Positions 1 through 17,400 of a DNA stretch of 64,000 bases are shown piece after piece. Source of the DNA: Candidatus Omnitrophota bacterium (lineage in GTDB: Bacteria; Omnitrophota; Gorgyraeia; Zapsychrales; Fredricksoniimonadaceae); the NCBI GenBank assembly GCA_903944345.1, contig CAJARJ010000011.1:3460-67459 (forward strand), given 5' to 3'. The notes beneath the pieces were generated by a model that ran no database searches, was not told where the DNA came from, and worked only from the letters and a program-made list of their open reading frames with translations. The translations under genes were made by a program, and so were the position numbers. Each line of letters opens with the position of its first letter. Within the stretch, counting starts at the first letter, position 1.

Positions 1-726
1 GTCCGGGTTCAAATCAATTCCCTTAACCAGGGAACGATCAGCATAAGCCGCAGACAACAAGGCACCTCGCAGAGCACGTTTGTACCAGGCCGCCAGAACC
101 ATTCCGCTGTATATCTGTCTCAGCCCGGCAAAATGCTCTGAACGATTCACTTCTTCGGTTATAACCGGAACCAGCACACTGCCCGCAGGCGATGCGGCCG
201 CGCTCATCGCTTTCAGACGCTGTTCCAGCAGATAAACGGTATTATCTTTTTCATAAAGTACGGCGCGTTCGGGCAGTATCCAGATTTTGCTAAGCATTTC
301 TGCCGACGTAGCCGTTTGCCAGAATGTCTGTCCGGTTACGGTGTCTGGATCCGTCAGGACAGACGCGGACTGTTTGAGAACCATGTCTTGCGCCAGAAGA
401 TCTCTGCCCATAAGGGTATGGCCGAAATTGGGGGCCGTTAACCGACCAGGTTCATCAGGAGAAAGGTTAACCCACTGGTCTTCATCGGGCACGGCCAAAG
501 CGGCCAGGAAATATTTGACCAGGCGCAAATATTCTTGCTGACGTTCACCCGGAGCAAGATTCTCGTTACCACGATCAATCAGGAACTCCAGGCTGAAAGG
601 ATTGCGTGGGTCAACCGTAAGCCCAGCCAGAACCGGTGACTGGGCATGCCCGTTTACCGGTATAACGACAATAAAAAGAAAAAATAAGTAGAATAAGTAG
701 TGACACACAGAATTGTTTCTTAACAT
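1..726 (-). CDS. Paralog A of the secreted multi-domain protein family (5' part only; the gene runs off the left edge). Signal peptide plus the shared N-terminal module.
   Basis: Manual minus-strand translation from the ATG at 726-724: MLRNNSVCHYLFYLFFLFIVVIPVNGHAQSP... It is open to position 1 (242 codons), which is why it is not in the ORF track. It aligns with the N-termini of the 2814-, 936- and 1384-aa proteins (WVNLSP, GRDLLAQD.VLKQ, KIWILPERAVLYEK, EEVNRSEHFAGLRQIYSGMVLAAWYK). Confidence 0.6.
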   Translation of the reverse strand, partial: MLRNNSVCHYLFYLFFLFIVVIPVNGHAQSPVLAGLTVDPRNPFSLEFLIDRGNENLAPGERQQEYLRLVKYFLAALAVPDEDQWVNLSPDEPGRLTAPNFGHTLMGRDLLAQDMVLKQSASVLTDPDTVTGQTFWQTATSAEMLSKIWILPERAVLYEKDNTVYLLEQRLKAMSAAASPAGSVLVPVITEEVNRSEHFAGLRQIYSGMVLAAWYKRALRGALLSAAYADRSLVKGIDLNPD

Positions 727-728
727 AT

Positions 729-745
729 TGTGACATTATATCACA
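729..745. promoter_or_regulatory. TGTGA-N7-TCACA palindrome (tgtgacattatatcaca) immediately upstream of the paralog A start codon. On the minus strand it reads GTGATATAATGTCACA and contains a TATAAT -10-like hexamer.
   Basis: Seen directly in the sequence. A Crp/Fnr-like inverted repeat, but with a 7-bp spacer rather than 6. Confidence 0.3.
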
Positions 746-787
746 TTGTAATAAAATGTTAAAGGACTGCACAAAACAATTCTGTAT

Positions 788-813
788 GTCACGAATTATA
801 GTCACGAATTATA
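788..813. repeat. Tandem direct repeat, 2 x 13 bp (gtcacgaattata), lying between the stop of the giant gene and the 18-bp motif copy at 775-792.
   Basis: Seen directly: gtcacgaattata gtcacgaattata. Confidence 0.7.
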
Positions 814-3800
814 TCAGGGGGAAATAAAAAACGCCCGGATGTCTTTTTCAGGTTTTATGGCCACAATCACCGGAACTAGCCCGCTGATATCCGCATATTT
901 TTGTAAAATAGCCGGCGAAATATCCATGTCCATACCACCATCATGGCTTATGGCAAGATCAAAACGGGAAGTATCCAGATCAATACCACCGGGATTATCT
1001 TCCGGCACAGACGTGTGATCCGGATCAGCAGGTATTCCCCTGTCTTCCTCGATCAAACGAAGTGTTCGATCAACAGAAAAAGGCAAAAAACTCCCCGCAT
1101 TTACCCGGTTTACCTGCCAGGCCGCGTTTAACAAAAACAGCCAGGCCGAAGGATGACGCAAAAGAGATTCCCCTGAAACTCCCGTGAAAAGATCATCAAG
1201 TCTTTGCGCATAACTATTCTCCAGCAGTAATGTTCCATTATCAGTTAACCGCATTCTCCCCTTCATGCCCGGTCCGGCAGGAGCTATATTCAACCGGGAC
1301 AAATCCACCCCCAGAAGCCGCTGACTGTCAGCAAAAAGACGACGGCTCCATTCCTGCGCACCAGGCAGCCAAGCGGGTGCAACGCTGTCGCGAGAGATCT
1401 GCCCGGCTGAAGAGTCCCCAGAAGATTGAAGAAAATTGTTTATATCCGGAAGATTTACCGGTTTGACGGCCTCAGCCTCGCCGGATTTCTGCCGGACTGT
1501 TTGCGTTTCTTCAGGCTTTTGCGCGGATGCCTTACGCGACCGACGGGAAGCAATCGAAGCTCTGGCAAAAATGATCCCGGTTACAATAAGAAAAAAAGCC
1601 GTGATACCTCCCACAACGAAAGCAACCGGGTGCATCAGAATTTTCGCCGCTCTGGCACGGAAGGAGAAATCGTCCGCCACCTTGTACTCGCGGGAAACAT
1701 CCTTGAATGAATCCTGGAACTCTGTCAGCCCGACGCTTGAATCGCCAGAAACAGTCGAAGGCACTCCCGTGTCTGTACCAGGCACCGGAGGATCGTACTC
1801 TCCTTGCACATTCCGGACATTGACAATGTTGTCCGTTCCCCAGGAAAAAGGAATAATCGTACCGTTCTGTCCGACAACATAAGTATCCGCATGATAACTG
1901 TTGGAGAAAACTCTTCCGTAGTTCTTGTAAATATGCACACTGCTGTCCAAAGCACGATAACCCATACGATTTAGAAACAACCCGTAATACCGGCTGATAT
2001 CTCCGCAGGCTCCTCCAGCTTTTTTATCCGGGTCACCTCCACCGGTAATTTTCATCAAAGCGTCTGTTGCGGTGACATCCCCCTGATAAACCTCTCTGGT
2101 ATCATCGTACTCAATAAAGTCTGCGGTCATTTCCAGTGTCTTAAGAACCTTTTCCCTGGCAGAGAGAGAAACGTCTTCGGAAATGGCGCGTATTTTCTTT
2201 TCCAGAACAGGATAAGTCTGCATGGCATGAAACTCCTGGTTGTCCTGATCAACCACCGGAATCTGCCCAGCAGGAAGACGATTGTTTTTATCCCGGCGCG
2301 GAATAATATACGTGATTGTTCCTGAGGAAGTAAAATCCTGCTTCACCGTGACATGCCCCCGGCTGATCGAAGTCTGGTCAAAAAGCGCCAAAGGAATAGT
2401 TGATGTCATAATTCTCTCGGGAACACCGTCTACAATCTGCGGAAAATAAATAGTCTCTCCGGCCTGATGCGGCCCCAACGGCATGGTAACAATAACCGCT
2501 TCTCCTGTCCGCTTGCCCTGCGGCTCCATTTCCCTTAAAGCAACTGTTTTCCCGTTTCCGTCGGAATAATGAAAGGCATGGATCAGATACTCCCCCGGGC
2601 GCATTCCTGTCACCTGATAAAGTGAAACGGCATTCCTGCTTTCAGGAACAGATCGAGGCAATTCAATACCATTCGTCAGATACGGATAACCACCTTGTTC
2701 AGCCAGAAAAATAACCGCTCCAGTCAACGCAACCGCCGCTGCCTTGCGCCACCTGACAGGAAAAACACGCTCAAGGGTTACCGAAAAGGTCTCACTGGTA
2801 CTCAAAGGACGGGCTTTCAGGACTGACGGAATATCTTCGTGCTGGGGAGGAAGAATGAAGGGCGAATCGATTTCCGGTGCATCGAGTGTCTGAACAGAAC
2901 CGCCGCGGTAAATGTCCAGAAGGCTCATCGGGCCATTAACCGTATCAAACTTCACCCGCACCATCAAACGGTACCAGTGTTTTAACATGTCTTCTTCCGG
3001 CACCAGATCAAAGCGGCTCTGCTTGTCGGAGGATGTATAGGCATTATTCAAATAGGCTGAAAATCTCCTGATCTCGGGATACCTGCTCTCATCTTCGCCG
3101 GCTCTCTCCAGAGAGGCCTTGACAGAAGCGACAATGTCAGGATCATTTATCCTGTCTGAACGCACCGCCAGAGCCAGCATGGCCTTAAGCCCTTCACTTG
3201 CGCGGATCAATGGCCAGTACGCCGGATAAGCCGGCTCCGTGCGGGCCTTGGTGGGCAAAATACCGTCCGGTATTTCCGTATCCACCCCCCATGACAAAAG
3301 AGTGCGCTGGACTTCCACCGGAATAACACCGTCCCAATATCTGGAGGCCACCGCGTCCAGAGGTGCCGGCATGGGCAGATTGTCCTGCAAAACCCTGCTA
3401 AGAGAATGCCCTGTGATCAAAAGACGCGAATCGGAAAAATCTCCGAAACGCAAAGACGCAGCAGGCTCTCCCGGGCGATTGAGTTTTTCTCCGTTTAAAA
3501 AAATATCGACATCTTCCACCGCACTTCCATAGTACTCAAACCGTTTCTTTATTTTGCTGGCGTAGCGCCTCAGCTCCGCCATCGATTCAAACACCCTTTC
3601 CTGGCGGATCAAGGTTCCGTGAAGAGGCTCTTGATCCTGCAAAGACACCACTTCCCGTTCCTGGAGCGAATCAACCACCAATGTCCCGTCTTCCTTCCTG
3701 GAAGCTGAAAGCACAAACCCGTAATTTGCAGGGGCCCCGGCGGCCACACGGGAGACCGGCAGGCTTTCAACCACAATCCTGTCGCCAGGAAGGGTTTGGG

Positions 3801-6800
3801 CCCATATGGTATAAAAGCCCTGCCCCATATGACGCGACTTACTGGTGGCATCCAGAGGAAGAAGTTTGTTAATCATGACATAATCATCCATGCCATCGCC
3901 TTTGTCCCGGATCTGGAGAGCCAGCGTATATTTCCCGTCAGTACGCGCAACAGAGTACAGGCGCACAGCAATGTCTTTCTGTTGGCCCTCCTGTCCGGAA
4001 CGAAGTGCGTCCCGGGCATTCTGCAAAAGCTCCCGCGGCAAGGTGGTAGGATCCTGCCCCGAGATGGCCGAAAAAATTTCCTGATCATAACCGGCTTTGA
4101 CATCCCCAGGAAAAGAAGAACCCAGTTCTCTGTCCAGCCCGGAGATATCCAGATCAGAATCTGCCCGGTTACGCGCGGAAAGAATATGGGCCAAAGGGAT
4201 ATCTTCAAGGCTATGAATTATTTTCCCTTCCCCGGGGACAAGAGATTCGAAGGTATCTCTCGCTGGCACAGACATGGCCAAGGGGTATAAAAGAGCATGC
4301 CAGAACTCCCGCATGGCCGGCGGGGCCTGATCCTGGTATTCGGACGCAAGCAAACGAACACCGGGCATTGTTTCCTGTCCGACAACATACCTGCGGTTTA
4401 TTTGATCCAGAAACCCTCTCGCCGAGAAAGGATCATCTCCGGCAAGCGCTTCTACCCAGGCAGACACAACCGTATTGAGCTTTTCCGGAACAAGCGTATC
4501 GAGAACAGGATCCATCCTCTCAAAAAAAAGGAACAACTCATTCTCCGCGGACAAAACGGTTGTCTGCACATACCTGAGAAGCGAAGAACGAACTTCATCA
4601 GAAAGCCGTCCTAATACCCGAGCCGAGGCAAACGGCAAAAGTGGGGCAAGAGAATCTGTTATAAGCTCAGGCGGCAAAGAAGCCAGATTGTCGAAAAGCC
4701 GCCGAAGTCTCAGAACGGAGAGATATTCTTTTCCTGACTCCGACTCCGGCACGGCCTCAATTTCTTCCGAAGAAGGGAAATCGAGCCTCTTCCAAAACTT
4801 CTTCATTGACCCCGTCGCCGGCAACAAAACATGGTCCGCGGCCAACACAGGAGTGGAACTCCATTCTCCCGGGGGAAGAAGTTCCCATAAATTATAAAAA
4901 CGACGGGCTTCCTTATCGAATATATAACCAGAGAACTTTTCTATAGAACCAATGCCGCCACCCAAAACAACAAAATCATATCGACCCGGTCCGCCGATAT
5001 AACGTGTAACATCTCTATCTGCGGGAAGTGGTATTTCCTGCAAGGAGCCATCGGCAAGATCAATACTCACCAATTTCTTTCCGGCCACTCCGTAAAGGCT
5101 GCCCTGCCAACGGGTAAAACTTAAGTCCGACTCTTCCGTATTCAGTTTCCCACGAAGAACAAGACCATCAAAAACCGTATATTGACTGCCTATCGTATAA
5201 ACATAAAGGCAGACTTCTCCGGATTTTTTTTTGCTCCTGGTCAAGGCGTAAACATATTTATCATCAGCTGAAGAATATAACAGTTTTTGATTAGACGGAT
5301 AAATAATAACCGGTATCCGCTTGATCTTTCTTTCCGAAAGAGTAACTCGTGCGATTACACCCATGCCACCCAGAAAAAATTTGTCAGCAATATAAACATC
5401 TCCCTCAGGCCCGGGGACCGGAGCCATCGCCGATGGAGAGGAATATCTGTAAGACCTCTTCTTGTTCAGATCAAAAAGCAAATGAGCCCAGTTTCCGAAT
5501 ACAGGTATACTCAAATCAACGAACCCTGGAACGGACTTTGAAGGAAGAAGTTTTGATAAATGAGCTTCGAAACTGGAAAGATCAAAGTGCTTCCTCAAGA
5601 AATAAAGCCCACCATAATCTGAAATCAAAAGCCACCACAAAGAATAACCTATACCAAGGAAGGTAAATAAATATGATAATGCGTAATAATAAGTAAAATA
5701 GTACTGATACTGAAGGCAAAGAATCAAAAACGCAGCAATTTCTAGTGATTGACGAATCCGCAGACCTTCCCCGGGAACGATATTCTTTCTGACATCCCAG
5801 AACGTTTGCCGCGCAATAATGGATATCAGACCAACAGAAATCAGCCCTATTGTCGATGTAAAACCACCTACTGCATATACACCAAGAGCGATCACTGCCA
5901 GAGACATAACTGAAACCAGTAAATGAACGACATCTCCAGCAGACAACTTGTTTCTTAACGGAATATTCATCACAAAACGCCCCTGGTTCACAGTCAAACC
6001 AAACGGAGTGGCTGTTGAATTTTGCAGCAAATCATGGGATGAATACCTCCCGCTTTTCTTGCCCGTAAGAGAGTTGATCGCCCAACGATAGGATCTATCA
6101 GCTCTTTGCTCCCATCCAATAATTTCGTTGCTATTGAATACTGACTCATTGTTCGTATCGGTCACAACAAATTCAGGAGCGTCATTCCACAGATAATGAC
6201 CGTCACTCAGCGCACCCTGCGGGTGCATCTTGCGGAAAGGTCTCCAGTCGGGGTCATCCGCATCCGGTTTTGACACCGTTGAAATCATTACGCCGTCGCT
6301 GGTAACCTCCTCCACAGTATTAGCACCTAGTGTCCCGGATGACGACTCGACCGACTCCACGGCCTGGGCGAGGCCATTCGCGCTCAGTGCAGCCGATTGC
6401 AGGTTATTACGAAGCCTTTGAGTGTCTCCGGCGGAAAGTCCGGATCCCTCTTCTAATCTCTGCAAAACAATCCCCAAATCTTCCTTCAGATTCCCGGCCT
6501 CTTCTGCCGGTAAAGTAAAGCTGACAATACCGTTCTCCCGCAAAACAGCATTCATAAACTCTGCCGACTTGTGCCTGTCGGGTGCCTGTAACAGTGTTTC
6601 TTCCTGGGAATTCGATATAAACAACGCTTCTCTGCCAAAAGGAATCATCAATGCTTTATCCTCCGACGGCAAGACATAAACTCTCTGCCCGCGAAAAGAC
6701 CGGGAACGGTTCAGCGAAGAATCCAGAAGCTCGCTTGAGCCTGTAAAAAATGCATCATCCAGATAAAAAAGCGCCAGACCTGAAAGATCCTGCCCCTCCA

Positions 6801-9258
6801 AAGCTCCGGATAAAGTCCGTGGCAGAAAAAGTATATTTCCGTAATTCTGCTGTAAATACGGCAAAAAAAGCTCTTTTCTGGCACGGCTGACGAAATCTTC
6901 CACAAAATCATACCCATTACCAGCCACCGCTCTTTTACGCAAGAACATCATGACCCGCAAATACCCGTTGATCATGGCAAGAACCTGGGAGACATTCCCC
7001 CAGAAAAGACGCTCCCGCATCTTGAGCAGAAAATCACCGGTCAGGACATGAATACTGCTTTCAACTGTAGCATCAATAACAATATCGTTCTTGTCATCCG
7101 TCAGGGTTGTTACCGCCGGAAGACGAATGGTCAGTTCTTCCGGAAGAATATTCCCCTCTGCTCCTGTTTCCTGCTCAACCATGGATCTTCCGCCGGCATA
7201 AATCCGCATCTTCATTTGCTTTTGTGTAGTTCCCTGGGATATTTCGGCATCAACAGCTTTCTCGATATCCACTTGAGTGCGCCTGCGGACAAGATCATCC
7301 GGAGTATTTTCTCCTGCCCGGGGACGCGGAAGTTTTGTCAGAAGCACTGAATCGCTCATGCCGTCGGCGTGATCCCGCACAGAGAAACCGTCTTTAAAAA
7401 TATTAACCTCCAAAGACAATCCCTGATCATCAACAAGATATTTGTTCTCCAATCCCTGACCGCCAAAATAAACTGTGTCCCGATGCGGATTAACCAGCTC
7501 GCCGTTCAAAACTATTCTGATCTGATTGTTCCACCCGTATTTGACACGAACAGCCACTTGCATCCGGCTGATAAAATCCGGATCCCGCTCAAAACGGCTC
7601 AAGCGGGCGGTAAATGTTGTGCCCACATCAAACGTCCCCGGGAGTTTGTCGAAATAAATATGTATTTTCCCGCCCCTGCGAAAGAAAAGAACCCTCCTGC
7701 CTTCTCCCTTGTCACCTGGAGTAGACGTAACCCAGCTGATCATATCTCCCTTAAGCTGGCCATCTTCACGGCGCAGTTCTTCCTGTAAATACGAGAGCAC
7801 CTGCAACCCTCCCTCTCCGAACTGCCCCAAAGAAAAATCAAGGCCCAGTTTCCGGAAAACGGCATCTATCGAATTATCCATCAATTCAAAAACCGGACTG
7901 AATTCATCTCCCGACTGCTGGAAAACATGGGTATTCCCCCGCCCCTCGGAAACCCGTCCGGAAATGATCTCCTTGAGTTTTCTGTTACCGTCGGGGGTAT
8001 ACCACCTGCTGAAATCCTCTGCCGACACGTCCCGGATATATGGAAAAAACTTCTGCCACTCGAAAGACATATCCAGGTTAAAAGGCGGAATATCTGCCGC
8101 GCTTTCGGCGGCATCTGTTTCACCTTGCCGCAGCACATCCGGAGCATTGCTCCACTCTTTGGCTGTAACCTCAATAACCATTCCCCGGGCCGGAACATGA
8201 GCCGGATCAAAAGGCAACATCTGCATGGCCAGATCAATCGCCTCGCCCTGAAAACCGCCGGAGAAATATTTCCGGGGAAGATCTTCGCCGGTAAACAAAT
8301 CAGTTTCATTTTTGATATAATTGAAAACGCCTTTCCTAAAAGCCTCCATATACTTCTGCCAGATCTTTTTCGCTTCTTCGGGATCGTCAATATTAACTCC
8401 AGCCGTCTTGTTCCTGTCCACATACACCGCCGAAAGAAGCGACTGCCTGATTTTCTTTTTGTACCACGCCGCCAAAATCAACGACTGGTACACCTGCCGG
8501 AGCCGGGTAAAATGTTCTCCTTCGTTGACCTCTTTCTCCATCTCGGGAATAACAACTTCACGCAGGACAGCACGGGCAATCTCTGAAGCCGAAGATATCA
8601 CTGGTGCCGAAACAGTCTCACTGCCTGAGGCCAGATAATCCTGTTCAAGCATCACCTTCAGCCGCGATTGCGTGATATACACCGCACCGGCTTGCACATT
8701 CTCATACACCACGGCCTTATCGGGAACAATCCAGACCTTGTTGAACGTGTCTATCGGAATATCCGTCGTACCATATTTCTCCTGCGCCAGGGCGTACACC
8801 TTCTGCCAGAACTTCTTTCCTGTCTCACCCTCGGGATAAAGCAAAGATGCGGTCAGCTGTTTGAGAATATAGTCCTGCTCCAGAAGATCCCGGCCCATTT
8901 CAGTCTGGCCAAAAGCTTCGGGGATAATACGGTCTTTTTCGTAGGGACTCAAATTGACCCACAGGTCTTTTCCGGGGATAGTCAGACTGGCCAGAAAATA
9001 CCTGATAAGCCTTTCGGATTCTTTCTTAAGATCGGATCCTTGGGGCAATCGGCTTCCCGGATCAAGGATAAAGTCAAAACGAAACGGCTCTTTAGGGTAC
9101 ACCTTAAGCCCTGTGAGCACAGGAGGAGAAAAAACAGGACTTAAAAACAATCTTTCACTAGGCGGAGGCAGGAAGGACTGGGCATGCCCGGAAGAAACGC
9201 TCTGGAACGAAAAGGCCAGCAAAAGGATACAACAAATAACTTTCCTTATAGTATACAT
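814..9258 (-). CDS. Giant secreted/membrane protein (2814 aa), paralog B. It has a signal peptide, the shared N-terminal module, a long unique middle with an internal block of about four TM helices, a TM helix near the C-terminus, and the shared C-terminal tag.
   Basis: Single uninterrupted ORF. Signal peptide MYTIRKVICCILLLAFSFQSVSSGHAQS. N-terminal ~330 aa are 60-65% identical to the 936- and 1384-aa proteins. TM-like runs include HLLVSVMSLAVIALGVYAVGGFTSTIGLISVGLISIIA and LAFLILCLQYQYYFTYYYALSYLFTFLGIGYSLWWLLI. C-terminal motif PGGIDLD...GLVPVIVAIKP. Confidence 0.8.
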   Translation of the reverse strand: MYTIRKVICCILLLAFSFQSVSSGHAQSFLPPPSERLFLSPVFSPPVLTGLKVYPKEPFRFDFILDPGSRLPQGSDLKKESERLIRYFLASLTIPGKDLWVNLSPYEKDRIIPEAFGQTEMGRDLLEQDYILKQLTASLLYPEGETGKKFWQKVYALAQEKYGTTDIPIDTFNKVWIVPDKAVVYENVQAGAVYITQSRLKVMLEQDYLASGSETVSAPVISSASEIARAVLREVVIPEMEKEVNEGEHFTRLRQVYQSLILAAWYKKKIRQSLLSAVYVDRNKTAGVNIDDPEEAKKIWQKYMEAFRKGVFNYIKNETDLFTGEDLPRKYFSGGFQGEAIDLAMQMLPFDPAHVPARGMVIEVTAKEWSNAPDVLRQGETDAAESAADIPPFNLDMSFEWQKFFPYIRDVSAEDFSRWYTPDGNRKLKEIISGRVSEGRGNTHVFQQSGDEFSPVFELMDNSIDAVFRKLGLDFSLGQFGEGGLQVLSYLQEELRREDGQLKGDMISWVTSTPGDKGEGRRVLFFRRGGKIHIYFDKLPGTFDVGTTFTARLSRFERDPDFISRMQVAVRVKYGWNNQIRIVLNGELVNPHRDTVYFGGQGLENKYLVDDQGLSLEVNIFKDGFSVRDHADGMSDSVLLTKLPRPRAGENTPDDLVRRRTQVDIEKAVDAEISQGTTQKQMKMRIYAGGRSMVEQETGAEGNILPEELTIRLPAVTTLTDDKNDIVIDATVESSIHVLTGDFLLKMRERLFWGNVSQVLAMINGYLRVMMFLRKRAVAGNGYDFVEDFVSRARKELFLPYLQQNYGNILFLPRTLSGALEGQDLSGLALFYLDDAFFTGSSELLDSSLNRSRSFRGQRVYVLPSEDKALMIPFGREALFISNSQEETLLQAPDRHKSAEFMNAVLRENGIVSFTLPAEEAGNLKEDLGIVLQRLEEGSGLSAGDTQRLRNNLQSAALSANGLAQAVESVESSSGTLGANTVEEVTSDGVMISTVSKPDADDPDWRPFRKMHPQGALSDGHYLWNDAPEFVVTDTNNESVFNSNEIIGWEQRADRSYRWAINSLTGKKSGRYSSHDLLQNSTATPFGLTVNQGRFVMNIPLRNKLSAGDVVHLLVSVMSLAVIALGVYAVGGFTSTIGLISVGLISIIARQTFWDVRKNIVPGEGLRIRQSLEIAAFLILCLQYQYYFTYYYALSYLFTFLGIGYSLWWLLISDYGGLYFLRKHFDLSSFEAHLSKLLPSKSVPGFVDLSIPVFGNWAHLLFDLNKKRSYRYSSPSAMAPVPGPEGDVYIADKFFLGGMGVIARVTLSERKIKRIPVIIYPSNQKLLYSSADDKYVYALTRSKKKSGEVCLYVYTIGSQYTVFDGLVLRGKLNTEESDLSFTRWQGSLYGVAGKKLVSIDLADGSLQEIPLPADRDVTRYIGGPGRYDFVVLGGGIGSIEKFSGYIFDKEARRFYNLWELLPPGEWSSTPVLAADHVLLPATGSMKKFWKRLDFPSSEEIEAVPESESGKEYLSVLRLRRLFDNLASLPPELITDSLAPLLPFASARVLGRLSDEVRSSLLRYVQTTVLSAENELFLFFERMDPVLDTLVPEKLNTVVSAWVEALAGDDPFSARGFLDQINRRYVVGQETMPGVRLLASEYQDQAPPAMREFWHALLYPLAMSVPARDTFESLVPGEGKIIHSLEDIPLAHILSARNRADSDLDISGLDRELGSSFPGDVKAGYDQEIFSAISGQDPTTLPRELLQNARDALRSGQEGQQKDIAVRLYSVARTDGKYTLALQIRDKGDGMDDYVMINKLLPLDATSKSRHMGQGFYTIWAQTLPGDRIVVESLPVSRVAAGAPANYGFVLSASRKEDGTLVVDSLQEREVVSLQDQEPLHGTLIRQERVFESMAELRRYASKIKKRFEYYGSAVEDVDIFLNGEKLNRPGEPAASLRFGDFSDSRLLITGHSLSRVLQDNLPMPAPLDAVASRYWDGVIPVEVQRTLLSWGVDTEIPDGILPTKARTEPAYPAYWPLIRASEGLKAMLALAVRSDRINDPDIVASVKASLERAGEDESRYPEIRRFSAYLNNAYTSSDKQSRFDLVPEEDMLKHWYRLMVRVKFDTVNGPMSLLDIYRGGSVQTLDAPEIDSPFILPPQHEDIPSVLKARPLSTSETFSVTLERVFPVRWRKAAAVALTGAVIFLAEQGGYPYLTNGIELPRSVPESRNAVSLYQVTGMRPGEYLIHAFHYSDGNGKTVALREMEPQGKRTGEAVIVTMPLGPHQAGETIYFPQIVDGVPERIMTSTIPLALFDQTSISRGHVTVKQDFTSSGTITYIIPRRDKNNRLPAGQIPVVDQDNQEFHAMQTYPVLEKKIRAISEDVSLSAREKVLKTLEMTADFIEYDDTREVYQGDVTATDALMKITGGGDPDKKAGGACGDISRYYGLFLNRMGYRALDSSVHIYKNYGRVFSNSYHADTYVVGQNGTIIPFSWGTDNIVNVRNVQGEYDPPVPGTDTGVPSTVSGDSSVGLTEFQDSFKDVSREYKVADDFSFRARAAKILMHPVAFVVGGITAFFLIVTGIIFARASIASRRSRKASAQKPEETQTVRQKSGEAEAVKPVNLPDINNFLQSSGDSSAGQISRDSVAPAWLPGAQEWSRRLFADSQRLLGVDLSRLNIAPAGPGMKGRMRLTDNGTLLLENSYAQRLDDLFTGVSGESLLRHPSAWLFLLNAAWQVNRVNAGSFLPFSVDRTLRLIEEDRGIPADPDHTSVPEDNPGGIDLDTSRFDLAISHDGGMDMDISPAILQKYADISGLVPVIVAIKPEKDIRAFFISP

Positions 9259-9282
9259 AAGGAAAGTTTAGACTATATGCGC

Positions 9283-9348
9283 ATAGAATGCCAAAAAGGC
9301 ATTAAACATACTGGGAACACAGAACCATTCCTTAACATATAGCGACAT
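9283..9348 (-). pseudogene. Remnant mini-ORF MLRNGSVFPVCLMPFWHSMRI* upstream of the giant gene, inside a duplicated 5' module. It is homologous to the start region of paralog A (MLRNNSVCHY...).
   Basis: Region 9335-9365 (cttaacatatagcgacattttatagc) is homologous to 719-745 (cttaacatattgtgacattatatcac). The equivalent ATG is followed by a stop after 21 codons. Confidence 0.4.
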
Positions 9349-9386
9349 TTTATAGCAATGCCACTAAACGTTAGAAAATGTCACGA

Positions 9387-9434
9387 AACAATTCTGTGTG
9401 TCACCGATTACCTAATTCTGTGTGTCACCGATTA
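9387..9434. repeat. Two copies of the 18-bp motif AACAATTCTGTGTGTCAC, arranged as a 2 x 21-bp tandem direct repeat (aattctgtgtgtcaccgatta, 3-bp spacer cct) upstream of the giant gene.
   Basis: Seen directly. The same 18-mer is at 775-792 (one G-to-A change) and inverted at 700-717. A partial copy (cagaattgt) is at 14407-14415. Confidence 0.7.
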
Positions 9435-10460
9435 ACGAACTCTCTCTCCAATAAACTCAAAATAAGGAGAAAGCACATCCTCTTCAGGAAAAACCTCGGG
9501 AGCAATCCGAAAAAAAAGTTTTTTGAAATCCTCCAAATGATAATCCAGTATCGTCAAATCCGTATCATAACGACTGGAACGCACCTGATTGTGCATGCAA
9601 AAAAAATAACGAGCGCTTGAGAAAACCCGTGAACGAAAATAATATTCAAACCACTCCCGGGACATCTCCCCCAACGAAGAAATTCCGCTGAAAACATCAA
9701 CTGACCCTGTTTGCAGCCGCTCATAAAGAAACGGCGGCAACAGAATAAAATCATGCGCCAGAATAAAATCACGATCAATTGACTCCAGCGCTGCTATCGT
9801 CTGATAGGAAGCAATCTTCGCCTCCGGAAAATGTGTTTGCAAGTAATAATGCGCCAGCGCCAAAGGCTCGGGAAAGTCCAGCAACACCTGAGAACAACAA
9901 GGATTATCTCTTTTTATCAAGGCAGAGAAATATCCATAATTCCCTCCAACATCCATCAAGGTAAAATTCTCCTCCAGCCCTGGCAAAACATAATGCCGGA
10001 ATAGCAGCAAAAAATAGACCCGAATCAGCCATTTCTTTGTAAATGTATACCCGTTATAGAAAAACAATATCGGGCCTCCCACATCATCACAGGGATAGTC
10101 ACGCAAAAGATCAAGAACACCAACTCCTCCAAGACAGACCTCTTTGCAAGCCTTGTAAAGAAGCAAAAGCTCCTTGCGCTCCTGCGGCAATATTTTATCT
10201 GCATTACGAGATCCCAACGGATTATGCCGGGAAGGGATATCCGCAATAAATATCTCCAGATTGCGAAAATTTCTTACTGCCTCACGATTCAAAGTCCCGT
10301 CAGGAGAAACAAATTTATCTGCCCGGGGATAAACCTGGGCCTCCGATGTCCCACCAAGATAAAGTTCCGGCTGCGAGCAAAGAAATTCTTTTTGCATACG
10401 CAAATCCTGCTCAATAAGGCCAAACAGGAATTGCTCTCTGTTCGACAAAACCATACCCAT
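9432..10460 (-). CDS. Class I SAM-dependent methyltransferase (FkbM / sugar O-methyltransferase-like).
   Basis: Glycine-rich SAM motif LMDVGGNYGYFSALI. 342 aa. Embedded in the paralog array. Confidence 0.55.
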   Translation of the reverse strand: MGMVLSNREQFLFGLIEQDLRMQKEFLCSQPELYLGGTSEAQVYPRADKFVSPDGTLNREAVRNFRNLEIFIADIPSRHNPLGSRNADKILPQERKELLLLYKACKEVCLGGVGVLDLLRDYPCDDVGGPILFFYNGYTFTKKWLIRVYFLLLFRHYVLPGLEENFTLMDVGGNYGYFSALIKRDNPCCSQVLLDFPEPLALAHYYLQTHFPEAKIASYQTIAALESIDRDFILAHDFILLPPFLYERLQTGSVDVFSGISSLGEMSREWFEYYFRSRVFSSARYFFCMHNQVRSSRYDTDLTILDYHLEDFKKLFFRIAPEVFPEEDVLSPYFEFIGERVR

Positions 10461-10495: not shown

Positions 10496-11437
10496 TCAAC
10501 GCCGCATCAGTCTTATTAACCAGAATAAAAACGGCCCGTAGCACAAAAGACAACCGATAAAAAGAAAAGGGGCAAAAGGAACACGAGACTTGATTTCCTT
10601 CATATGCTCGCTCAGTTCATTGACAATTTGTGAGAAAATGGTCAATGGAATCATGCGCAGCAAAAACCTTCCCGCAGCATCCGCCGAAAATATTGTATAC
10701 GAACTAAAGAACTGGAACAAAAGTCCCCCAAGGGCAAAAGTATAAACAAAACATTTAAAAAGCTTTCCGGAAGGATTCAGGGCAAATACCCCGCGATAAA
10801 TAAAGAAGATAATACAAATAACCAAAGGATTCCCCGAAGGTATCCTGAAGAAACCAAAAAGAGGGAAAATGGCCCATGAGATGACGGTTGTTATTTCAAA
10901 CGAATAAATCAGATTTTGTACTGTTTTTAACGAACACACCGCCCTGAAAATATCACGAAAATGAGAAACAACCCCGTCAAAAATCATCGGGAAAAGGAAA
11001 ACCATGCCCGCCAGGAATGTATTAATAAAATGCGCCAGACAAGGAAGCGGCGCTGACCTCTCATAAATATGGGAAGGCATAAGAAGGGCATACACCATAA
11101 AAAGCTTGGCATCCCCCGGTCTCCAGATATTGTTAACAAAAAGCAGAAAGGCCCCCAGCGCCGCTGCCGCAACATTTACAAGAAGAGGCACAGGCTCAAT
11201 GATATGCGCCATAACAGCCCAGACATGCAGAAAAATCCCGGCCAGGGAAGCAACAATAAGGTGAATATTCCTGATCTTGCGTTCCCGGATATCCGTAAAA
11301 GAAGTCATAGCCCCGGTTACAACAAGCAAAACCCAAAGAAGGGCCAAATAAATCCCGTATGGAGCTATTGTCATGAAAAGACCCTGGAAGATTATTTCAA
11401 ACCTACGTGCAACTGTTGAACTATATTGTCCGGCCAC
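10496..11437 (-). CDS. Polytopic membrane protein with an A24-family aspartic peptidase signature (prepilin peptidase / CpaA-TadV-like) and an extra C-terminal ~4-TM extension.
   Basis: TSFTDIRERKIRN after TM1 matches D-x-R-x-R-x-I-P-N (P replaced by R). WRPGDAKLF matches the GGGDVKL second-aspartate motif. About 8 predicted TM helices. No pilin or flp gene nearby. Confidence 0.45.
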   Translation of the reverse strand: MAGQYSSTVARRFEIIFQGLFMTIAPYGIYLALLWVLLVVTGAMTSFTDIRERKIRNIHLIVASLAGIFLHVWAVMAHIIEPVPLLVNVAAAALGAFLLFVNNIWRPGDAKLFMVYALLMPSHIYERSAPLPCLAHFINTFLAGMVFLFPMIFDGVVSHFRDIFRAVCSLKTVQNLIYSFEITTVISWAIFPLFGFFRIPSGNPLVICIIFFIYRGVFALNPSGKLFKCFVYTFALGGLLFQFFSSYTIFSADAAGRFLLRMIPLTIFSQIVNELSEHMKEIKSRVPFAPFLFIGCLLCYGPFLFWLIRLMRR

Positions 11438-11529: not shown

Positions 11530-14274
11530 TCAGCGAAGAATACCGCTCTCCAACGGACGAATAAACTCGATTCGAACCTTCAAACCTTCCAGCCTGATTC
11601 CGGAGAAGTCCTGCTCTGACACCGGAAGAGGAATGCCTTCTCCATCACGCTGGATCTGCATATCAAGATGTTTCTGGGCCAGATCGATACCACCAACCTC
11701 ATCACTTCGGACAGGGATTGCAGATGCATCGGCGGCTGCCGCAGCAAACTCATTACGATAAGCCTCAACCCTGGCAATAACCCCATCAAGTTCATCAGCA
11801 CTCTCAATATCTCCTGCCGGAATATCAAAGTCGATCCACTGGGTGCGAGGAATATGTACCCCCAGATACAAACGCTCAGCATCAAGTCTCATGGTAAGAT
11901 CTGACGCTTGCTTACGGGCCAAGGCGAGAAAATCATCCATTAACTTTATTCGGGCTTCTCTAAGGGTACCGTCCAACAGGCGCGCCACGCCACCCCAACC
12001 CAAATCAGTCAACCGGGACAACGCAGGATTAAACAAAGTAACATCCATCAGCTTGCGATTCCGGTAACCGGACTGTGTCACGGCAATCTTGACAAATGTC
12101 ATCCCGCTATAAACTTCAACATCAAAAGCCGTCGCTTTGTAAGGGACAAGCGCAGGGAAAAATGCTTTTAAAAGCGACATCGTCACCCTTTGATCCGGAA
12201 CTATCCTGCCCTCGATGGAAAGCCGCTCCTGTCTGGTGATCTGGCTTGGCCAAACAAAAGTTTTTTCCTGCACAGCCTTAGAGGCAATCTTCTGACGGAA
12301 AGATTCGTCCGCAAGCAACTGATTAAGGTCTTGAACCAGATCTCCTGATTCGACAGGAGTAACATCCAGCTCTGTTTTCAAAACCTCCAGAAGCTCTGTC
12401 GGAGACATTCCTGCTTGCTGAAAGTCTTCCCACTGAAAAAGCGCCAATTCAGGATATATAACATTCTCCAAATGGAACATCTTGCGCCCCGGCGCAAGCA
12501 TCATCTCCTGATCAGCAGAAATAACCCCCGTCAAAGACTGAAGGATTTCCGGTTTCTCCATGGCAGCAACGCTGATTTCTGTCCTCTGGACAGAAGAATC
12601 CCCCTCGGCCAGCAGCTCTAACCCTCTGGTATGCTGCTCCAGCATTGCGAGCAAAGACTGCGGAGTCACCTCAGCACCCGCAGGAAAACGCACATCAAAG
12701 GCATTCCCGTCCTGCGGAACAACCCGAAGAACAGGAATATTGCTCTGCATTTCGATGGTATAGCGAACAGACCTGTCGTTATCCTTAAGCTGTTGCAACA
12801 ACGCCGCAAGCCTGTCAGTCTGCAGACGCAATACCATGGCACGCAAAAAACTGACCGTATCCGACCAGTTGGCTTTGGCGAGTTCCAGAAACCGGGACTG
12901 ATCAACGCCAAACAGTGTTACTTGCATAAGAGCATCGGAGTCCTTATCGGAGACAACAACCTTCAAATACGGCATCGCTCCTCCGCTACTGATACTTACA
13001 TTATAAATATCCCTGCCTTTGTTTATCTGATATGCAACCATATTTGTGCCGGCATAAGACTTGCGAACCGGATCCTTGCCGGAAAGAACTCCCATAACCC
13101 GGAATAAATCAAGATTATAAATCTGGTTCTCCCGTAACGAAATGCTGAATTGCGCATCATCCACAGCGGAAACCAGTGAAACACGCATATCTTCCAGGCC
13201 AGAAACCTGGGCTTCGTCTGCGGACGAAAGCGCAGAAACGCGCTTGGCCGAATCGATGGCCGCTGTTGCATTGGTCATACCCCCCGAGAAATACTTGCGG
13301 GGAACCGGCTGGGCACCATAACTATCCACATCATCCCGGATCACGTTGTAGGCCCCGGCACGAAACGCCTCCAGATATTTCTGATAAATTTCTTCATTAA
13401 CCCGGGGATCCTGGCGAATTCCGGCCAGTCTTGATTTATCGCCGTAAAGCGACGTCAGTATGCTTTCCCTGAGAGCCTGTTTGTACCATGCCGCCAGGAG
13501 CATCCCGCTGTAAACCTGTCTTAACACCGCAAAATCCTTGCCTTCATTTACTTCCTGTTCAAGCACAGGCAGAATCACTTCCCGCATAACCTCACGGCTT
13601 AACTGTGTCAATTCCGTGTTTGCCGGCTCAAGGACATCCCGGCCCTGTGCGGCAAGGTAATCTGATTCCAGCTGAACCTTCAGCCGGGATTCAAGCACAT
13701 ACACGGCACTGCCCTTCTCATACAACTTTACCGAGTCGGGCGTAATCCACACCCGGTTGAACACATCGGTCGGGATATCCGTTATGGCATACTGGCGGTA
13801 AGCCCGCTCGTAAATTTTTTCCCAGAATTTTTTACCCAGCTCGGTGGAAGGATTACTTAAAGAAGAAGCCGCCTGCTTGAGCAGGTAATCCTGTACCAGC
13901 AAATCACGCCCCATCTCGGTCTGACCAAAGTTGTCGGCAATAATGCGGTCTTTTTCGAAAGGAGAAAGGTTCACCCACTGATCCGTGTCGGGCACTGTGA
14001 CCGAAGCCAGAAAATATCTGATCAAACGGCTGTATTGCTCCTGTTTTTGCGCATCATCCAGGCTAACATCTCCGCTTTGAACAATAAAATCCAGTTTGAA
14101 GGGATCTTTGGCATCAATAACAATCCCTTTAAGAACCGCAGGGCGATCCGTCGGAATGATCATGCCGGGCGAAACAGCAGGCGTTCCTGTCAGCTGAGCA
14201 AAAGCCGCGGAAGGAAGAAAAGTTGTGGAAACAAAACATAACAAAACAAAACAGGCAACAATACGTCGTAACAT
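11530..14274 (-). CDS. Secreted protein (about 915 aa from the MLRRIV start), paralog C: signal peptide, shared N-terminal module, unique middle, shared C-terminal tag.
   Basis: ORF 11530-14340. The likely start at 14274 (MLRRIVACFVLLCFVSTTFLPSAAFAQ) is preceded by AAAAGGAC. N-terminal module is about 65% identical to the giant protein. C-terminal VGGIDLAQKHL...GLKVRIEFIRP. Confidence 0.75.
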   Translation of the reverse strand: MLRRIVACFVLLCFVSTTFLPSAAFAQLTGTPAVSPGMIIPTDRPAVLKGIVIDAKDPFKLDFIVQSGDVSLDDAQKQEQYSRLIRYFLASVTVPDTDQWVNLSPFEKDRIIADNFGQTEMGRDLLVQDYLLKQAASSLSNPSTELGKKFWEKIYERAYRQYAITDIPTDVFNRVWITPDSVKLYEKGSAVYVLESRLKVQLESDYLAAQGRDVLEPANTELTQLSREVMREVILPVLEQEVNEGKDFAVLRQVYSGMLLAAWYKQALRESILTSLYGDKSRLAGIRQDPRVNEEIYQKYLEAFRAGAYNVIRDDVDSYGAQPVPRKYFSGGMTNATAAIDSAKRVSALSSADEAQVSGLEDMRVSLVSAVDDAQFSISLRENQIYNLDLFRVMGVLSGKDPVRKSYAGTNMVAYQINKGRDIYNVSISSGGAMPYLKVVVSDKDSDALMQVTLFGVDQSRFLELAKANWSDTVSFLRAMVLRLQTDRLAALLQQLKDNDRSVRYTIEMQSNIPVLRVVPQDGNAFDVRFPAGAEVTPQSLLAMLEQHTRGLELLAEGDSSVQRTEISVAAMEKPEILQSLTGVISADQEMMLAPGRKMFHLENVIYPELALFQWEDFQQAGMSPTELLEVLKTELDVTPVESGDLVQDLNQLLADESFRQKIASKAVQEKTFVWPSQITRQERLSIEGRIVPDQRVTMSLLKAFFPALVPYKATAFDVEVYSGMTFVKIAVTQSGYRNRKLMDVTLFNPALSRLTDLGWGGVARLLDGTLREARIKLMDDFLALARKQASDLTMRLDAERLYLGVHIPRTQWIDFDIPAGDIESADELDGVIARVEAYRNEFAAAAADASAIPVRSDEVGGIDLAQKHLDMQIQRDGEGIPLPVSEQDFSGIRLEGLKVRIEFIRPLESGILR

Positions 14275-14487
14275 GAACAGTCCTTTTCTTACAGAGTAAA
14301 ATCCGCCCCTCGCGTGTCGGGCCCGGACCGGATTAAACAACCAGGACAGAGAAGCCGATAAAGACTCTCTGCTATTCTATAATTTATTTGATTCGAAAGA
14401 TTCTAGCAGAATTGTCATAAAAAGTCAATTATGGCAATAAATGCAAGTTTTTGCAAAAACACTGGTCAACGATGCTGCAGGTAAGGG

Positions 14488-17400
14488 TTAGTTTGGAGTC
14501 AAGCCCAAAACAACTGAAAGCCGCGCGACCGGAGTCACTTCAAGAATGACGGGAGAAAGCCCATAAAAATCGCCCCGGAAGGCGCTCTGCAAAGCATCAA
14601 AACTGAAGGAAACCCGGCCTGGGTTGCGCTGACCGGACAGGACGATATCCTTGATGTCAATACCGCCAACAGGCTCCTGCGCCTGGTCTACCCCGTCGGG
14701 AATAGCCTGAACAATGCCTCCCGGAAGAATACCGTATTCCATAAGAACACGGAACACTTCCGAAACACTCCAGGCCTGGGAAGGCGTCCCGCCCGCAGAA
14801 CGCTGGCCATTTTCCCTAGGTTCGGCATCATAAACTTCCGCAATCGACCCTGTTGCCAGGAAATCCCGCACCAGCGGATCAAGCACCGCCGAGATTTCTC
14901 TTTTTATATCTTCATCCGGCCTGTTTTGCGCGCGCAAAACCTTGGCCAAAGCATCAACATACCCACCAATAAGCCATGGCCAAACCGTCCCCTGATGATA
15001 CGCATAATCTTTATGCCAATGGAAATCAGGATGTCCGGGAGAAGGCTGAAAAGATGTGTCATAACGCGGCCTGTAATGGGAATCCCTGGGGTCCAGCGTA
15101 CGCAGCCCCTTGTCGGTAAGAAGCCTTCGAGTCACCGCATCCACGACCTGCTTTTGTCTTTCAAAAGAAAGCAAATCCTCACCATGACTGACCGCAAAAA
15201 TCATGTTGGGCCGCACGGCGCCACCATGTGAATCCCCCTCGATCACATCAAAAAGTAAATTCTCAGGCTCATCAACATCTGCAGAAACCGGACGATCATT
15301 CCAGAACTTCTTGTTAAAACTGCTCTTGACCTTGAGCAACAAAGCCTGCAGCCTTGAGGCTTCAACCTCAACATCTTCGATATTCATCGAAACTTTCATT
15401 TGCTCGGTCAATTGCCCGCCCACCTCCGAGAGAAGACGCACCAGATACCTGAGATTCGCATACCACAAAGCATTGATCTCGACAGCTTTTCCATTGCGCG
15501 GCGTGACCGGCCCCTGTGCATTCGGATCGGCATCCATCCAGGTGGCCTGTGATGGGCTAGAAATCAGGGCATCCGAGGGATCCATGTAAATGCGGTTATA
15601 ATTATTTGCAGGAAAAGCGTTAATATGTTTGGAACGGTCATATCCGACGCCTTTTTCGTAGGCCGTCAGAATAGCACGGACAACCGGAAACATTTCCAGG
15701 GCAAAAGCCTGATCCCCGGAGTATTCAACGTACTTTTTGACCGCCTGGATAAACCACATCGGGCCGTCAACAGTATTGTACTCGTTCCACTCCGGATGAC
15801 GGGAATCTGGAATACGGTTGGGGATCAGTCCGTCTTTCATGAATGAAGCAAAACTGCGAATGACCGCGCGCGCTTCTTCAAAACGCCCGGTTGCAAGCAG
15901 AATACCTGGCAAGGAAATGAAGGTATCCCTCCCCCACTGCTCCAGAAACCATTCACTGGGACGCCCCGCAGCCCATATCTCGACAACAGGCTTCCCATTG
16001 CGCTCGACGTGCTGGACAAAGGAGTCGGCGGTCATGGCCAGGACACCCCGAAGCGCCGCACGCACCTCGACTGAAGCCCCTTCCAGGCTGAAATACCCCC
16101 CCCGATGCAAATCAGGCAGAAGTTCATGCAAACGAAACAAATCCGAAGCCTTGAACCTTGTCCGCGAAAAATAATCCTGATCACCGGGCAAAGGAATACG
16201 GTAACGCCAGGTGGAGTGACCATCAGCTTCTTTTTTGAGCGGCTGCTTATCTCCGTGAATATCTCCCATGGCCAGCGCAAGAAAAGACGAACGGCCCGCA
16301 GTCAGGCTGTCCAGTTCACGCTTGGCAGTCTGAACCTTGCGAATAAACGCCACCGAATTTGCATGATAGTTACGCGGATCATCGTGAGTCGATATACGTT
16401 TGTAAAGACCGTCCATTGGCACAATGCCATGACGTTGTATATCATAAAATGTATTGTTGAAGGCCTCGGCAACAACAAAGGCCTGACGGTCATTAAAGAT
16501 CTTTGCAACCGCAGCCACAAGGGCGTCACCGGGTTCAGCCTCAAGATTATCCTGTCCGATATTATAAGCAAAATGCAAAGCATCAATCCTGGCGCCGTCG
16601 AAACCGAAGTCCAGCCAGAATTGCATCGGATCGGTGATCAACCTGAATTTGTCTTCTTTAAGTTTATCCCAATTCCACAACGCCAGATCACCCCATACCA
16701 CCGGAAGGAAAGACAAGCCCGGGCTTAACCCCTCCTCAAGCCCGCGAAAATATTCCGGAGAGGCTGTAATATCAACACTGTCTTTTCCGCGAAAGAACGG
16801 AATATCAAACAACAGCTTGCCGCCCTCGGCATGAACCTGATCAACTGCTTTCCTGAACTGACGAAAGGCAATCCACTGCCGGAAAAGATGCTGCTGGATA
16901 TTCGACTGCCTGTCACCCGACTCTCTTTCAGCTTTCCAGCGGGCAAAGGTTTGCAGCTTCACCGACAGATTCGGATCCGTTTGAGTCTTCTCCAAAAAAT
17001 CTTTGGCAAGCGAAGTATCCTTACCCAGATGCCTGGACGAAAAAAGCCTCCAGACCTGCAAGGACAAAGCGGCATTACGCTCCCGGACAGAAGGAAAATC
17101 GATCTCGGCAGAAGTCCCGGCAGGAGCTTCAAGGAGATCTTTGACGGAAGCAAGAATAGCCTGTGCATCCTGATCATCCTCGGACATTTCCCGTATAAAA
17201 AGTTCCCAGTCAACCAGATCTTCGTTTAGCGCATATAGATATTCGGGAGCATACGGACTTTCGTGACGAATAGAATAAAACGGCATCAGCTGCATTACAG
17301 AAACACCCTGCGGTATGGCGGTCTCACGATAATATAAGGGAATATCCGAGAATTTGCCAATTCCCGGATCGCCCTGTTGGCGACGCAAAGCCGAAACAGC

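Follow-up and report, generated by a model that had tools for sequence, protein, structure and literature searches.

In a stretch of 64,000 nucleotides from a Candidatus Omnitrophota bacterium (GenBank assembly GCA_903944345.1, contig CAJARJ010000011.1, positions 3,460 to 67,459 of the forward strand; the whole of this stretch is called the window below), an 18-mer, AACAATTCTGTGTGTCAC, recurs around the starts of two paralogous genes, A and B, and the question that the locus raises is what this repeat is and how it came to stand there. An earlier note on the same DNA attributed it to duplication of the paralogs by unequal crossing-over, which would have carried promoter and start codon along, and proposed that it serves as an operator or as an RNA element. 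We describe the repeat here as part of a unit of ~45 nt that occurs mostly in back-to-back inverted pairs, called doublets or modules in the following. Our preferred reading, to which we give slightly better than even credence, is that the modules are a REPIN/MITE-like repeat family (REPIN, doublet of repetitive extragenic palindromic (REP) sequences forming a hairpin; MITE, miniature inverted-repeat transposable element) that was recruited as, or evolved into, a portable cassette of promoter and start codon, and not a by-product of gene duplication. We favor this reading because the inverted arms lie at a fixed distance around a looser spacer, singlets and tandem copies are also found, copies flank a Y1 transposase gene, non-orthologous copies share a sub-variant, and gene-order breakpoints fall at copies. 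The element is specific to one lineage of uncultivated Omnitrophota and, in the sequence covered, clusters in a single variable neighborhood, where several unrelated genes appear to receive from it one and the same promoter, start codon and set of nine opening codons. Short palindromic repeats of the REP/REPIN and MITE kinds are well studied in Proteobacteria; our literature search found no account of such repeats in Omnitrophota.

Results

Core motif and architecture of the repeat unit

The repetition of the 18-mer that the earlier note had reported stands out clearly from chance: with up to three mismatches allowed, there are four matches in the window against 0.02 expected, and none of 100 shuffles reached four (Table 1; all genes discussed are on the minus strand, and positions are those of the window unless prefixed by the handle of another sequence). 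Exact identity between 700-719 and 9385-9404 extends to 20 nt. A 19-nt sequence, GTGACACACAGAATTGTTT, contains the 18-mer as its invariant core; counting the flank it is ~27 nt long, and the arm has the consensus TTAAT(T/C)G-GTGACACACAGAATTGTTT. The copy within paralog A does encode the beginning of the protein, as had been claimed, but it forms codons 4-9 (NNSVCH) and not codons 3-8. The 'partial copy' that had been placed at 14407-14415, upstream of paralog C, is a 9-mer at chance level, and a search by nhmmer with a profile hidden Markov model of the module, built from seven copies, found nothing there; paralog C, whose upstream region has no module, was therefore rejected as a bearer of the element. 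The 9-mer falls in the spacer of an unrelated, near-consensus promoter-like site, TTGACT-17-TAGAAT, at 14400-14428 on the minus strand, ~125 nt upstream of paralog C.

The unit of ~45 nt consists of an arm and an ATG on its inner side, which reads outward through the arm (ATGTTAAG or ATGTCAnA) and is preceded by an A/T-rich, -10-like stretch. The outward-facing copies have a common build, namely ATGTCA, a short A/T run, ATGT(C/T)Ann, the 19-mer and C(A/G)ATTA. Since the upstream arm with the adjoining TATGACAT is the reverse complement of ATGTCATA with the downstream arm, the module is a back-to-back pair of one and the same unit. Units are found as singlets, as tandem copies and mostly as back-to-back inverted doublets of ~110 bp, in which the start-to-start spacing is 74 nt in nine of ten cases; seven full doublets align without a gap over ~105 nt. 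Including the flank TTAATTG / CAATTAA, the inverted repeat is ~27 nt long, so that the element of ~110 bp has terminal inverted repeats enclosing a short non-coding core, as do MITEs and Correia elements.

On the gene-ward strand, a promoter-like site with a 16-nt spacer occupies the same position in five doublets, with 9-11 of 12 consensus matches, and its -10 box ends 8 nt before the ATG. In such a doublet, the TTGACA-like hexamer of the left unit would act as the -35 box and the A/T run of the right unit as the -10 box, and the resulting sigma-70-type promoter, directed toward the downstream gene and ending ~7-8 nt before the ATG, would produce a leaderless mRNA. The element could thus work as a portable cassette of promoter and start, giving any gene that follows in frame the N-terminus M-(L/S)-x-N-N-S-V-C-H. 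Units lie exactly on gene boundaries: the TGA in GTGAC often doubles as the stop of the gene upstream (five cases: L101:5649-5651, L100:21821-21823, L101:2418-2420, L101:7927-7929 and L113:9447-9449), and the ATG of the unit opens the downstream gene. In two of six near-identical assemblies, a T-to-G polymorphism in the GTGAC stop (L101:5649-5651 compared with L102 and L105) lengthens an epimerase by 10 residues. Shine-Dalgarno motifs precede many other genes of the window and none of paralogs A, B and D; unlike these, paralog C has an AAGGA Shine-Dalgarno motif.

Modules A and B in the window

The earlier note had reported a shared 5' module with a promoter-like site and a start codon before paralogs A and B, and such a module is indeed present at both. 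Module A occupies the entire gap from the stop codon of paralog B to the start of paralog A, and in the sense direction its order is B stop, two 13-bp tandem units, upstream arm, spacer with the promoter-like site, 8 nt from the end of the -10 box to the ATG, the ATG, two codons and downstream arm. Positions 693-745 and 747-799 together form one imperfect palindrome centered at 746, with 53-nt arms that are 72% complementary, which the earlier note had missed. Judging from the position of the -10 box, a transcript from the module A promoter would begin 0-2 nt from the ATG, i.e. would be leaderless. The tandem duplication of 13 bp was found where it had been described; a second one of 9 bp, at 683-700, had not been mentioned. 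The TGTGA-N7-TCACA palindrome was also found as described, and it is specific to modules of the A type, being kept in L101, a relative with 88% protein identity in paralog A, broken in L107, a relative with 74%, and absent from the modules of B, E and the SNF2-fused paralog described below.

The homology claimed between 9335-9365 and 719-745 was borne out, and it extends without a gap over ~105 nt of modules A and B. The promoter-homologous site of module B stayed under the threshold of the promoter scan. Its ATG is dead, as had been proposed, the reading frame being closed by a stop after 21 codons, and paralog B really starts ~80 nt past it. The second tandem array also exists, with a period of 24 bp and not 21 bp (9390-9437 at 92% identity; 9379-9428 with 2.3 copies in Tandem Repeats Finder). 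The ATG of paralog B is covered by a perfect hairpin of 12 bp (9238-9249 with 9257-9268), the 5' arm of which is upstream of the presumed leaderless start. The same start-codon hairpin recurs at paralog E (L100, about 21940-21965) and at g675 (L113, about 16940-16965).

Table 1. Positions of the repeat copies, modules and paralogs
Feature	Position	Strand	Description
Module A	689..801	-	complete back-to-back doublet: upstream arm, spacer with putative promoter, ATG, downstream arm; nhmmer E 4.9e-30
Upstream arm, module A	774..792	-	sense strand GTGACATACAGAATTGTTT; 1 mismatch to consensus
Downstream arm, module A	700..718	-	sense strand AAACAATTCTGTGTGTCAC
Sigma-70-like promoter (predicted), module A spacer	735..762	-	TTAACA (762-757), 16 nt, TATAAT (740-735), TG before -10; 11/12 + TG in promoter scan
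Paralog A start codon	724..726	-	MLRNNSVCHYLF...; supplied by the module; without Shine-Dalgarno motif
Tandem duplication 2 x 13 bp (GTCACGAATTATA)	788..813		outer end of upstream arm and TATAAT-like flank doubled
Tandem duplication 2 x 9 bp (AATAAGTAG)	683..700		outer end of downstream arm; codes YLF-YLF in signal peptide
TGTGA-N7-TCACA palindrome	729..745		brackets the -10 box
Module B	9299..9412	-	second doublet; lies after the stop of the methyltransferase-like gene (9432-10460) and before paralog B; nhmmer E 4.5e-27
Proximal upstream arm, module B	9386..9404	-	19/19 consensus
Distal partial tandem copy of upstream arm, module B	9410..9428	-	GTGACACACAGAATTAGGT; belongs to the 24-bp tandem array 9379-9437
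Decayed downstream arm, module B	9312..9330	-	11/19 compared with module A downstream arm
Promoter-homologous position, module B	9347..9374	-	CTAACG (9374-9369), 16 nt, TAAAAT (9352-9347), 8 nt to relic ATG; gapless alignment to A
Relic start, module B	9273..9338	-	ATG (9338-9336), 21 codons (MLRNGSVFPVCLMPFWHSMRI), stop; out of frame with paralog B
Paralog B own promoter-like site and start	9238..9294	-	TTGGCA (9294-9289), 18 nt, TAAACT (9270-9265), 6 nt, ATG (9258-9256)
18-mer copy	700-717	-	exact; spells NNSVCH of paralog A
18-mer copy	775-792	+	1 mismatch
18-mer copy	9387-9404	+	exact
18-mer copy	9411-9428	+	3 mismatches; core 9414-9428 exact
Paralog A	1-726	-	716 aa as read on L100
Paralog B	814-9258	-	2814 aa
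Paralog C	11530-14274	-	
Paralog D	14488-18642	-	glycogen-debranching C-terminus
Paralog E	L100:21953-22744		fifth paralog

Copies beyond the window

The window is part of a metagenome contig of ~74-76 kb in ENA/NCBI, and L100, which is identical to it over the overlap, extends 3.5 kb past the window start. A third module, a perfect doublet at L100:21820/21894, lies 2.5 kb beyond the window start, upstream of paralog E. The orthologs of paralog A with 88% (L101-L106) and 74% (L107) protein identity have the module at the same place, and in L109 two tandem 19-mers close the ortholog of the gene that lies upstream of B, just as they do in the window; the motif is thus conserved at orthologous loci of relatives, absence from which the earlier note had named as a ground for giving up its proposal. 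L101 has copies in three intergenic regions, including those upstream of two further paralogs, one of which is fused to an SNF2 helicase and starts with MLRNNSVCHYLF, exactly as paralog A does, at a domain identity to A of only ~37-43%. L113, a contig of 20 kb that is 98% identical to the contig of the window over their sole shared stretch, the E gene, has 12 copies in seven intergenic regions. There the unit opens an S4-domain protein (MSQNNSVCHQL) and an unrelated protein of 463 aa (MSKNNSVCHQLFFFF), both of which are non-paralogs beginning with MS(Q/K)NNSVCH, and it also stands before an epimerase and before another paralog. Further copies were found in L107 and L109 by a mismatch-tolerant search. 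The copy counts cover ~100 kb of sequence of this lineage. The ATG of the unit would probably serve as the start in every gene fused to it, and gene callers disagree at these loci: in L107 the ortholog of A is started at an ATG 23 codons downstream, and in L108, the contig of which begins inside the element, an internal GTG is used.

Outside this set, the module profile had no nhmmer match in ~560 kb of other Omnitrophota loci, and there is no module copy at the C/D locus of a relative. L110, which has a 49% relative of a neighboring gene, is not syntenic. A scan of metagenomes for the exact pattern AACAATTCTGTRTGTCAC gave 19 single matches, which were all discarded as chance (unrelated DNA of varied GC content, with no Omnitrophota proteins). 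The inner edge of a 19-mer arm is also the exact point at which two short public contigs terminate (L108:1 and L109:1216); these ends were considered as a sign of inversion and rejected, since tandem copies or repeats shared between modules explain such assembly breaks as well as inversion or excision within the population would.

Conservation and predicted folding

Sequence conservation of the arms far exceeds what neutral sites show. Between paralogs, the upstream arms are identical at 15-19 of 19 positions, with four-fold degenerate sites at 14-49% identity, i.e. saturated; among A, B and E the values are 18-19 of 19 and 0.42-0.49, respectively. From the upstream arm to the ATG, identity to the window, counted from the alignment, is 93% in the 88% relative and 87% in the 74% relative, compared with 67% and 52% at four-fold sites. 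The downstream arm is identical at 17-19 of 19 positions among four copies (winA, winE, L101_SNF2 and L107A), and, since winE among them is a relic that is out of frame, the constraint acts on the nucleotides and not on the peptide. The spacer, with 24-38 of 47 positions identical between non-orthologous copies, is less conserved than the arms.

As single-stranded DNA, doublets are predicted to fold stably (z = -5.5 and -7.5). The predicted RNA fold of module A has -38.4 kcal/mol (z -6.1), and that of the B region has z -5.1; the fold of the 88% ortholog in L101 is at the level of shuffled sequence (z -0.6), and the hairpin is lost in decayed copies. A conserved RNA structure found no support in covariation tests on sets of 4, 7 and 10 copies: the RNAalifold covariation term was +1.86 and shuffles equaled the observed scores, and of the arm-pair positions that changed, 3 were compensated, 10 were kept as wobble pairs and 19 were broken. 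No family of Rfam 15 corresponds to the module, the one match being a sub-threshold generic hairpin with 22.5 bits against a gathering score of 110 bits. The only above-threshold Rfam matches in the window are two tRNA genes (46896-46984 and 47543-47616, minus strand).

A flanking transposase gene and rearrangements at the modules

A lone gene of the Y1 (HUH) transposase type has units on both sides in L113 (12797-13459), ~1.5 kb downstream of paralog E, and in L107 (5146-5811); it lies outside the window. The best NCBIfam model for its protein is the REP-associated tyrosine transposase (RAYT; REP_Tyr_transpos). In L107, the neighboring S4 gene and most of one doublet are missing, with an edge of the deletion inside a 19-mer. 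The sub-variant GGGACACAnACAATTGTTT is common to non-orthologous copies. Gene order differs between close strains, namely epimerase, module, E on the contig of the window; epimerase, module, 753, module, SNF2 in L101; and SNF2, modules, E in L113, and the breakpoints coincide with direct module copies, which agrees with the recombination at the modules proposed in the earlier note. The tandem repeats at 683-700 and 788-813 are each one-sided and include arm ends, and no direct repeat flanks the arms. We infer that copies may have been spread or homogenized by the Y1 transposase acting on a hairpin of single-stranded DNA, by gene conversion, or by both, and homologous recombination between direct copies would reshuffle the paralog array.

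The paralog family and neighboring genes

Paralogs A-E share an N-terminal domain of ~340 aa after the signal peptide, which has no sequence match in Pfam, NCBIfam or the PDB; its AlphaFold model is confident (mean predicted local distance difference test score, pLDDT, 82.9), and a Foldseek search of the PDB with it had no match. Homologs of the domain number more than 2,000, many per genome, and nearly all of those with a named source are from Candidatus Omnitrophota; its C-terminal fusions include glycogen debranching/GH77, SNF2 helicase, NUDIX, HAD, ankyrin and HEAT domains. The paralogs are 39-47% identical as proteins, and the pair B-E 72%. The C-terminal part of paralog B (2,470 aa; window 814-8200), set against L101:3-2420 and L107:2-1642, is hypervariable and without a family match. 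In the shared domain, the protein encoded upstream of A has a 63-70% match to B; its length is ~2,814 aa in the window, against ~1,060 aa and ~720 aa in the 88% and 74% relatives, respectively. The paralogs of this neighborhood also differ widely in how long their C-terminal parts are.

Paralogs B and E keep a family-type promoter-like site and start of their own, 65-85 nt downstream of the module, and C and D have no module. Family members in many other Omnitrophota have a -10 box TATACT, CATACT or TAAACT 5-9 nt before the ATG, the spacing of which suggests that leaderless transcripts are typical of the family across the phylum. In the ~70 nt upstream of paralog starts in L001-L080, we also observed cTTGTTTt, ~17 nt and (tagt)nCATACT/TATACT/TAAACT, in some cases with a GAAAACGCTTTC palindrome near -70. 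At 69 paralog loci of other Omnitrophota, the scores of inverted repeats around the start codon were distributed as in shuffled sequence, barring one perfect 17-bp palindrome in an unrelated genome (L012:2845-2878) that covers a -10 box and the ATG; inverted repeats were accordingly ruled out as a family-wide trait. Leaderless-type starts thus seem to be a habit of the family, and inverted 19-mers are not. Between paralogs C and B lie a gene for a putative sugar O-methyltransferase, TIGR04371-like, and one with a weak match to prepilin peptidase A24 (9432-10460 and 10496-11437, respectively, both on the minus strand).

Discussion

Evidence weighing against a mobile repeat

Several results weigh against a REPIN/MITE-like family. 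The element has no clean membership in either REPINs or Correia elements, as it lacks a palindromic core in the single unit and target-site duplications, and its candidate transposase is sub-threshold. Single units fold like shuffled sequence (z +0.3 and +1.2), without the palindromic core of a classical REP, and no target-site duplication, empty site or excision junction was found in the assemblies. The Y1 protein scores 68.7 bits against the RAYT cut-off of 80 bits, its PDB sequence matches are only to TnpA chains of IS200/IS605, and the gene could be, by these matches, an ordinary IS200-like insertion. All known copies are in one variable neighborhood and, over the ~100 kb of this lineage that was covered, do not appear dispersed: neither the mismatch-tolerant search nor the profile found a copy at 9,500-64,000 of the window, ~54 kb of mostly housekeeping genes, the exact 18-mer occurs in no related context within the metagenome collection, and the exact 19-mer had 0 matches in a viral collection. 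Full doublets always face the downstream gene, which fits a fixed regulatory module equally well, and the transcription starts of the modules are predictions from consensus matches.

Alternative explanations

One alternative is that the 19-mers are operators of one DNA-binding regulator dedicated to this variable neighborhood, a serious rival that we hold to be improbable without thinking it remote, and that could coexist with a co-opted repeat. One site would be at about -65 to -47 and the inverted one at about +5 to +24 of the predicted transcription start, from where a regulator might activate transcription or close a 74-bp loop that shuts the promoter. Such a role would account for the position of the sites relative to the -35 box, the -10 box and the ATG, which is fixed in all doublets, for their constant orientation, for arms that are kept as sequence without compensatory change, as for protein recognition, for conservation at orthologous loci across species above the neutral rate, and for upstream arms that persist where the downstream arm has decayed (winB, L101A and L101_753). 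It would not by itself lead one to expect an asymmetric 19-mer, tandem arrays, singlets beside stop codons, copies on both sides of a transposase gene, a sub-variant common to non-orthologous copies or gene-order breakpoints at copies, and no regulator gene was recognized near the modules. The arms might also act as a hairpin in read-through transcripts, as a terminator or insulator, an RNase III site or a mask over the internal AUG, which transcripts started in the loop would escape. The very stable folds predicted for the two modules of the window, their position astride a gene boundary and the ten one-sided substitutions that remain wobble-compatible on the sense strand are in keeping with this, as is the binding of RNase III by Correia elements of Neisseria described in PMC2649163. 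The absence of covariation, the excess of broken over kept pairs (19 against 13), the ordinary fold of the 88% ortholog, the lack of terminator-like sites in the scanned doublets and of an Rfam family, and the existence of upstream arms without a partner all speak against it. The RNA element suggested in the earlier note, which found neither covariation support nor an Rfam match, is consequently weakly supported, and we give it little credence.

The main proposal of the earlier note was that tandem duplication of the paralogs, through unequal crossing-over, left the modules behind, with promoter and start copied along. As an account of where the modules come from it is contradicted, and we regard it as very improbable; recombination between modules may still have followed later. 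It does explain why modules stand before A, B and E, all facing the same way; unequal exchange could proceed between direct repeats of ~100 bp, and the content of the array does differ between strains at the modules. The paralogs, however, have diverged to saturation at synonymous sites, and their arms are still identical at 18-19 of 19 positions; similarity ends abruptly ~45 nt inside the coding region, B and E each possess a promoter-like site and a start of their own downstream of the module, C and D have no module, and the unit also precedes or opens genes that are not paralogs, besides flanking the Y1 gene. Inverted repeats around a promoter-like site, before signal-peptide proteins with hypervariable C-termini, could finally be the recombination sites of an invertible promoter that acts as a phase switch for secreted variable proteins, and the doublet L113:13469/13569 has its unit types reversed relative to the downstream gene. 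This is unlikely, and we give it hardly any credence, as the arms are separated by only 55 nt and, to our knowledge, no invertible segment as short as this is known. One orientation was seen in all six assemblies of the 88% relative and in the window and L100, with the limit that assemblies show the majority state only; no inversion is needed to explain the 'flipped' doublet, given the palindromic build of the unit, and no invertase gene was seen.

Implications

The element is essentially the whole intergenic spacer and appears to supply the stop, promoter, start and first codons of its neighbors. Its copies mark the points at which a rapidly changing array of secreted proteins, with an uncharacterized, phylum-specific N-terminal domain in common, is broken. 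If the promoter assignment holds, it would be a clear natural case of a repeat that works as a portable leaderless expression cassette, and would provide a handle for annotating true gene starts. A bolder version, which is speculative and which we think distinctly improbable, is a mobile 'gene head': a cassette serviced by the transposase that ends the upstream frame, brings a leaderless promoter and fuses M-x-x-NNSVCH to whatever gene follows. If this were true, a streamlined, probably host-dependent member of the Omnitrophota could switch on and reshuffle a hypervariable array of secreted proteins; and if the peptide or the arms also acted as a switch, through inversion, looping or pairing between the tail of the upstream transcript and the leaderless 5' end, this would amount to a new combinatorial control of surface or secreted proteins.

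Comparison with known systems

REPINs are defined by short sequences in inverted orientation at a fixed spacing, which is commonly 71 nt in Pseudomonas fluorescens SBW25 (PMC3337134). The modules resemble the REPIN/RAYT system of SBW25 and E. coli in the inverted conserved pair at a set spacing (74 nt here against 71 nt) and the looser spacer (PMC3337134), as well as in the predicted hairpin of single-stranded DNA, the singlets and tandem clusters beside doublets, the lone Y1/HUH gene flanked by copies, and the persistence at orthologous sites. They differ from it in that the single unit has no palindromic core, the copies are, within the sequence covered, clustered and the transposase is below the RAYT cut-off; furthermore, they are not strictly extragenic, supplying a stop, a start and ~9 codons, and their spacer holds what looks like a full promoter. 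Correia elements of Neisseria (Correia repeat enclosed elements, CREE) can create promoters and bind RNase III (PMC2649163). Like CREE and other MITEs, the element is palindromic, ~100-150 bp long with terminal inverted repeats of ~20-27 bp, adjacent to genes, apparently promoter-supplying and able to form predicted transcript hairpins (PMC2649163). In contrast to them, it has no target-site duplication that we could find, its doublets have one orientation to genes, its likely partner is a Y1 and not a DDE transposase, and its putative spacer promoter is joined to a leaderless ATG and N-terminal codons.

With the looping operators of gal, lac and deo, the modules have in common that the -35 and -10 boxes lie between two copies of one site, ~7 helical turns apart; here, on the other hand, the sites are asymmetric 19-mers that also occur as tandems and singlets away from promoters, and no regulator is known. 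The coding part of the element recalls the Rickettsia palindromic elements, which Ogata and colleagues reportedly described in 2000 as palindromic repeats inserted in frame inside genes and translated in unrelated proteins. The element described here is likewise a palindromic repeat that is translated as part of unrelated proteins; it differs from the Rickettsia elements, which lie inside genes, by its position at the 5' end, to which it would also bring a promoter and a start codon.

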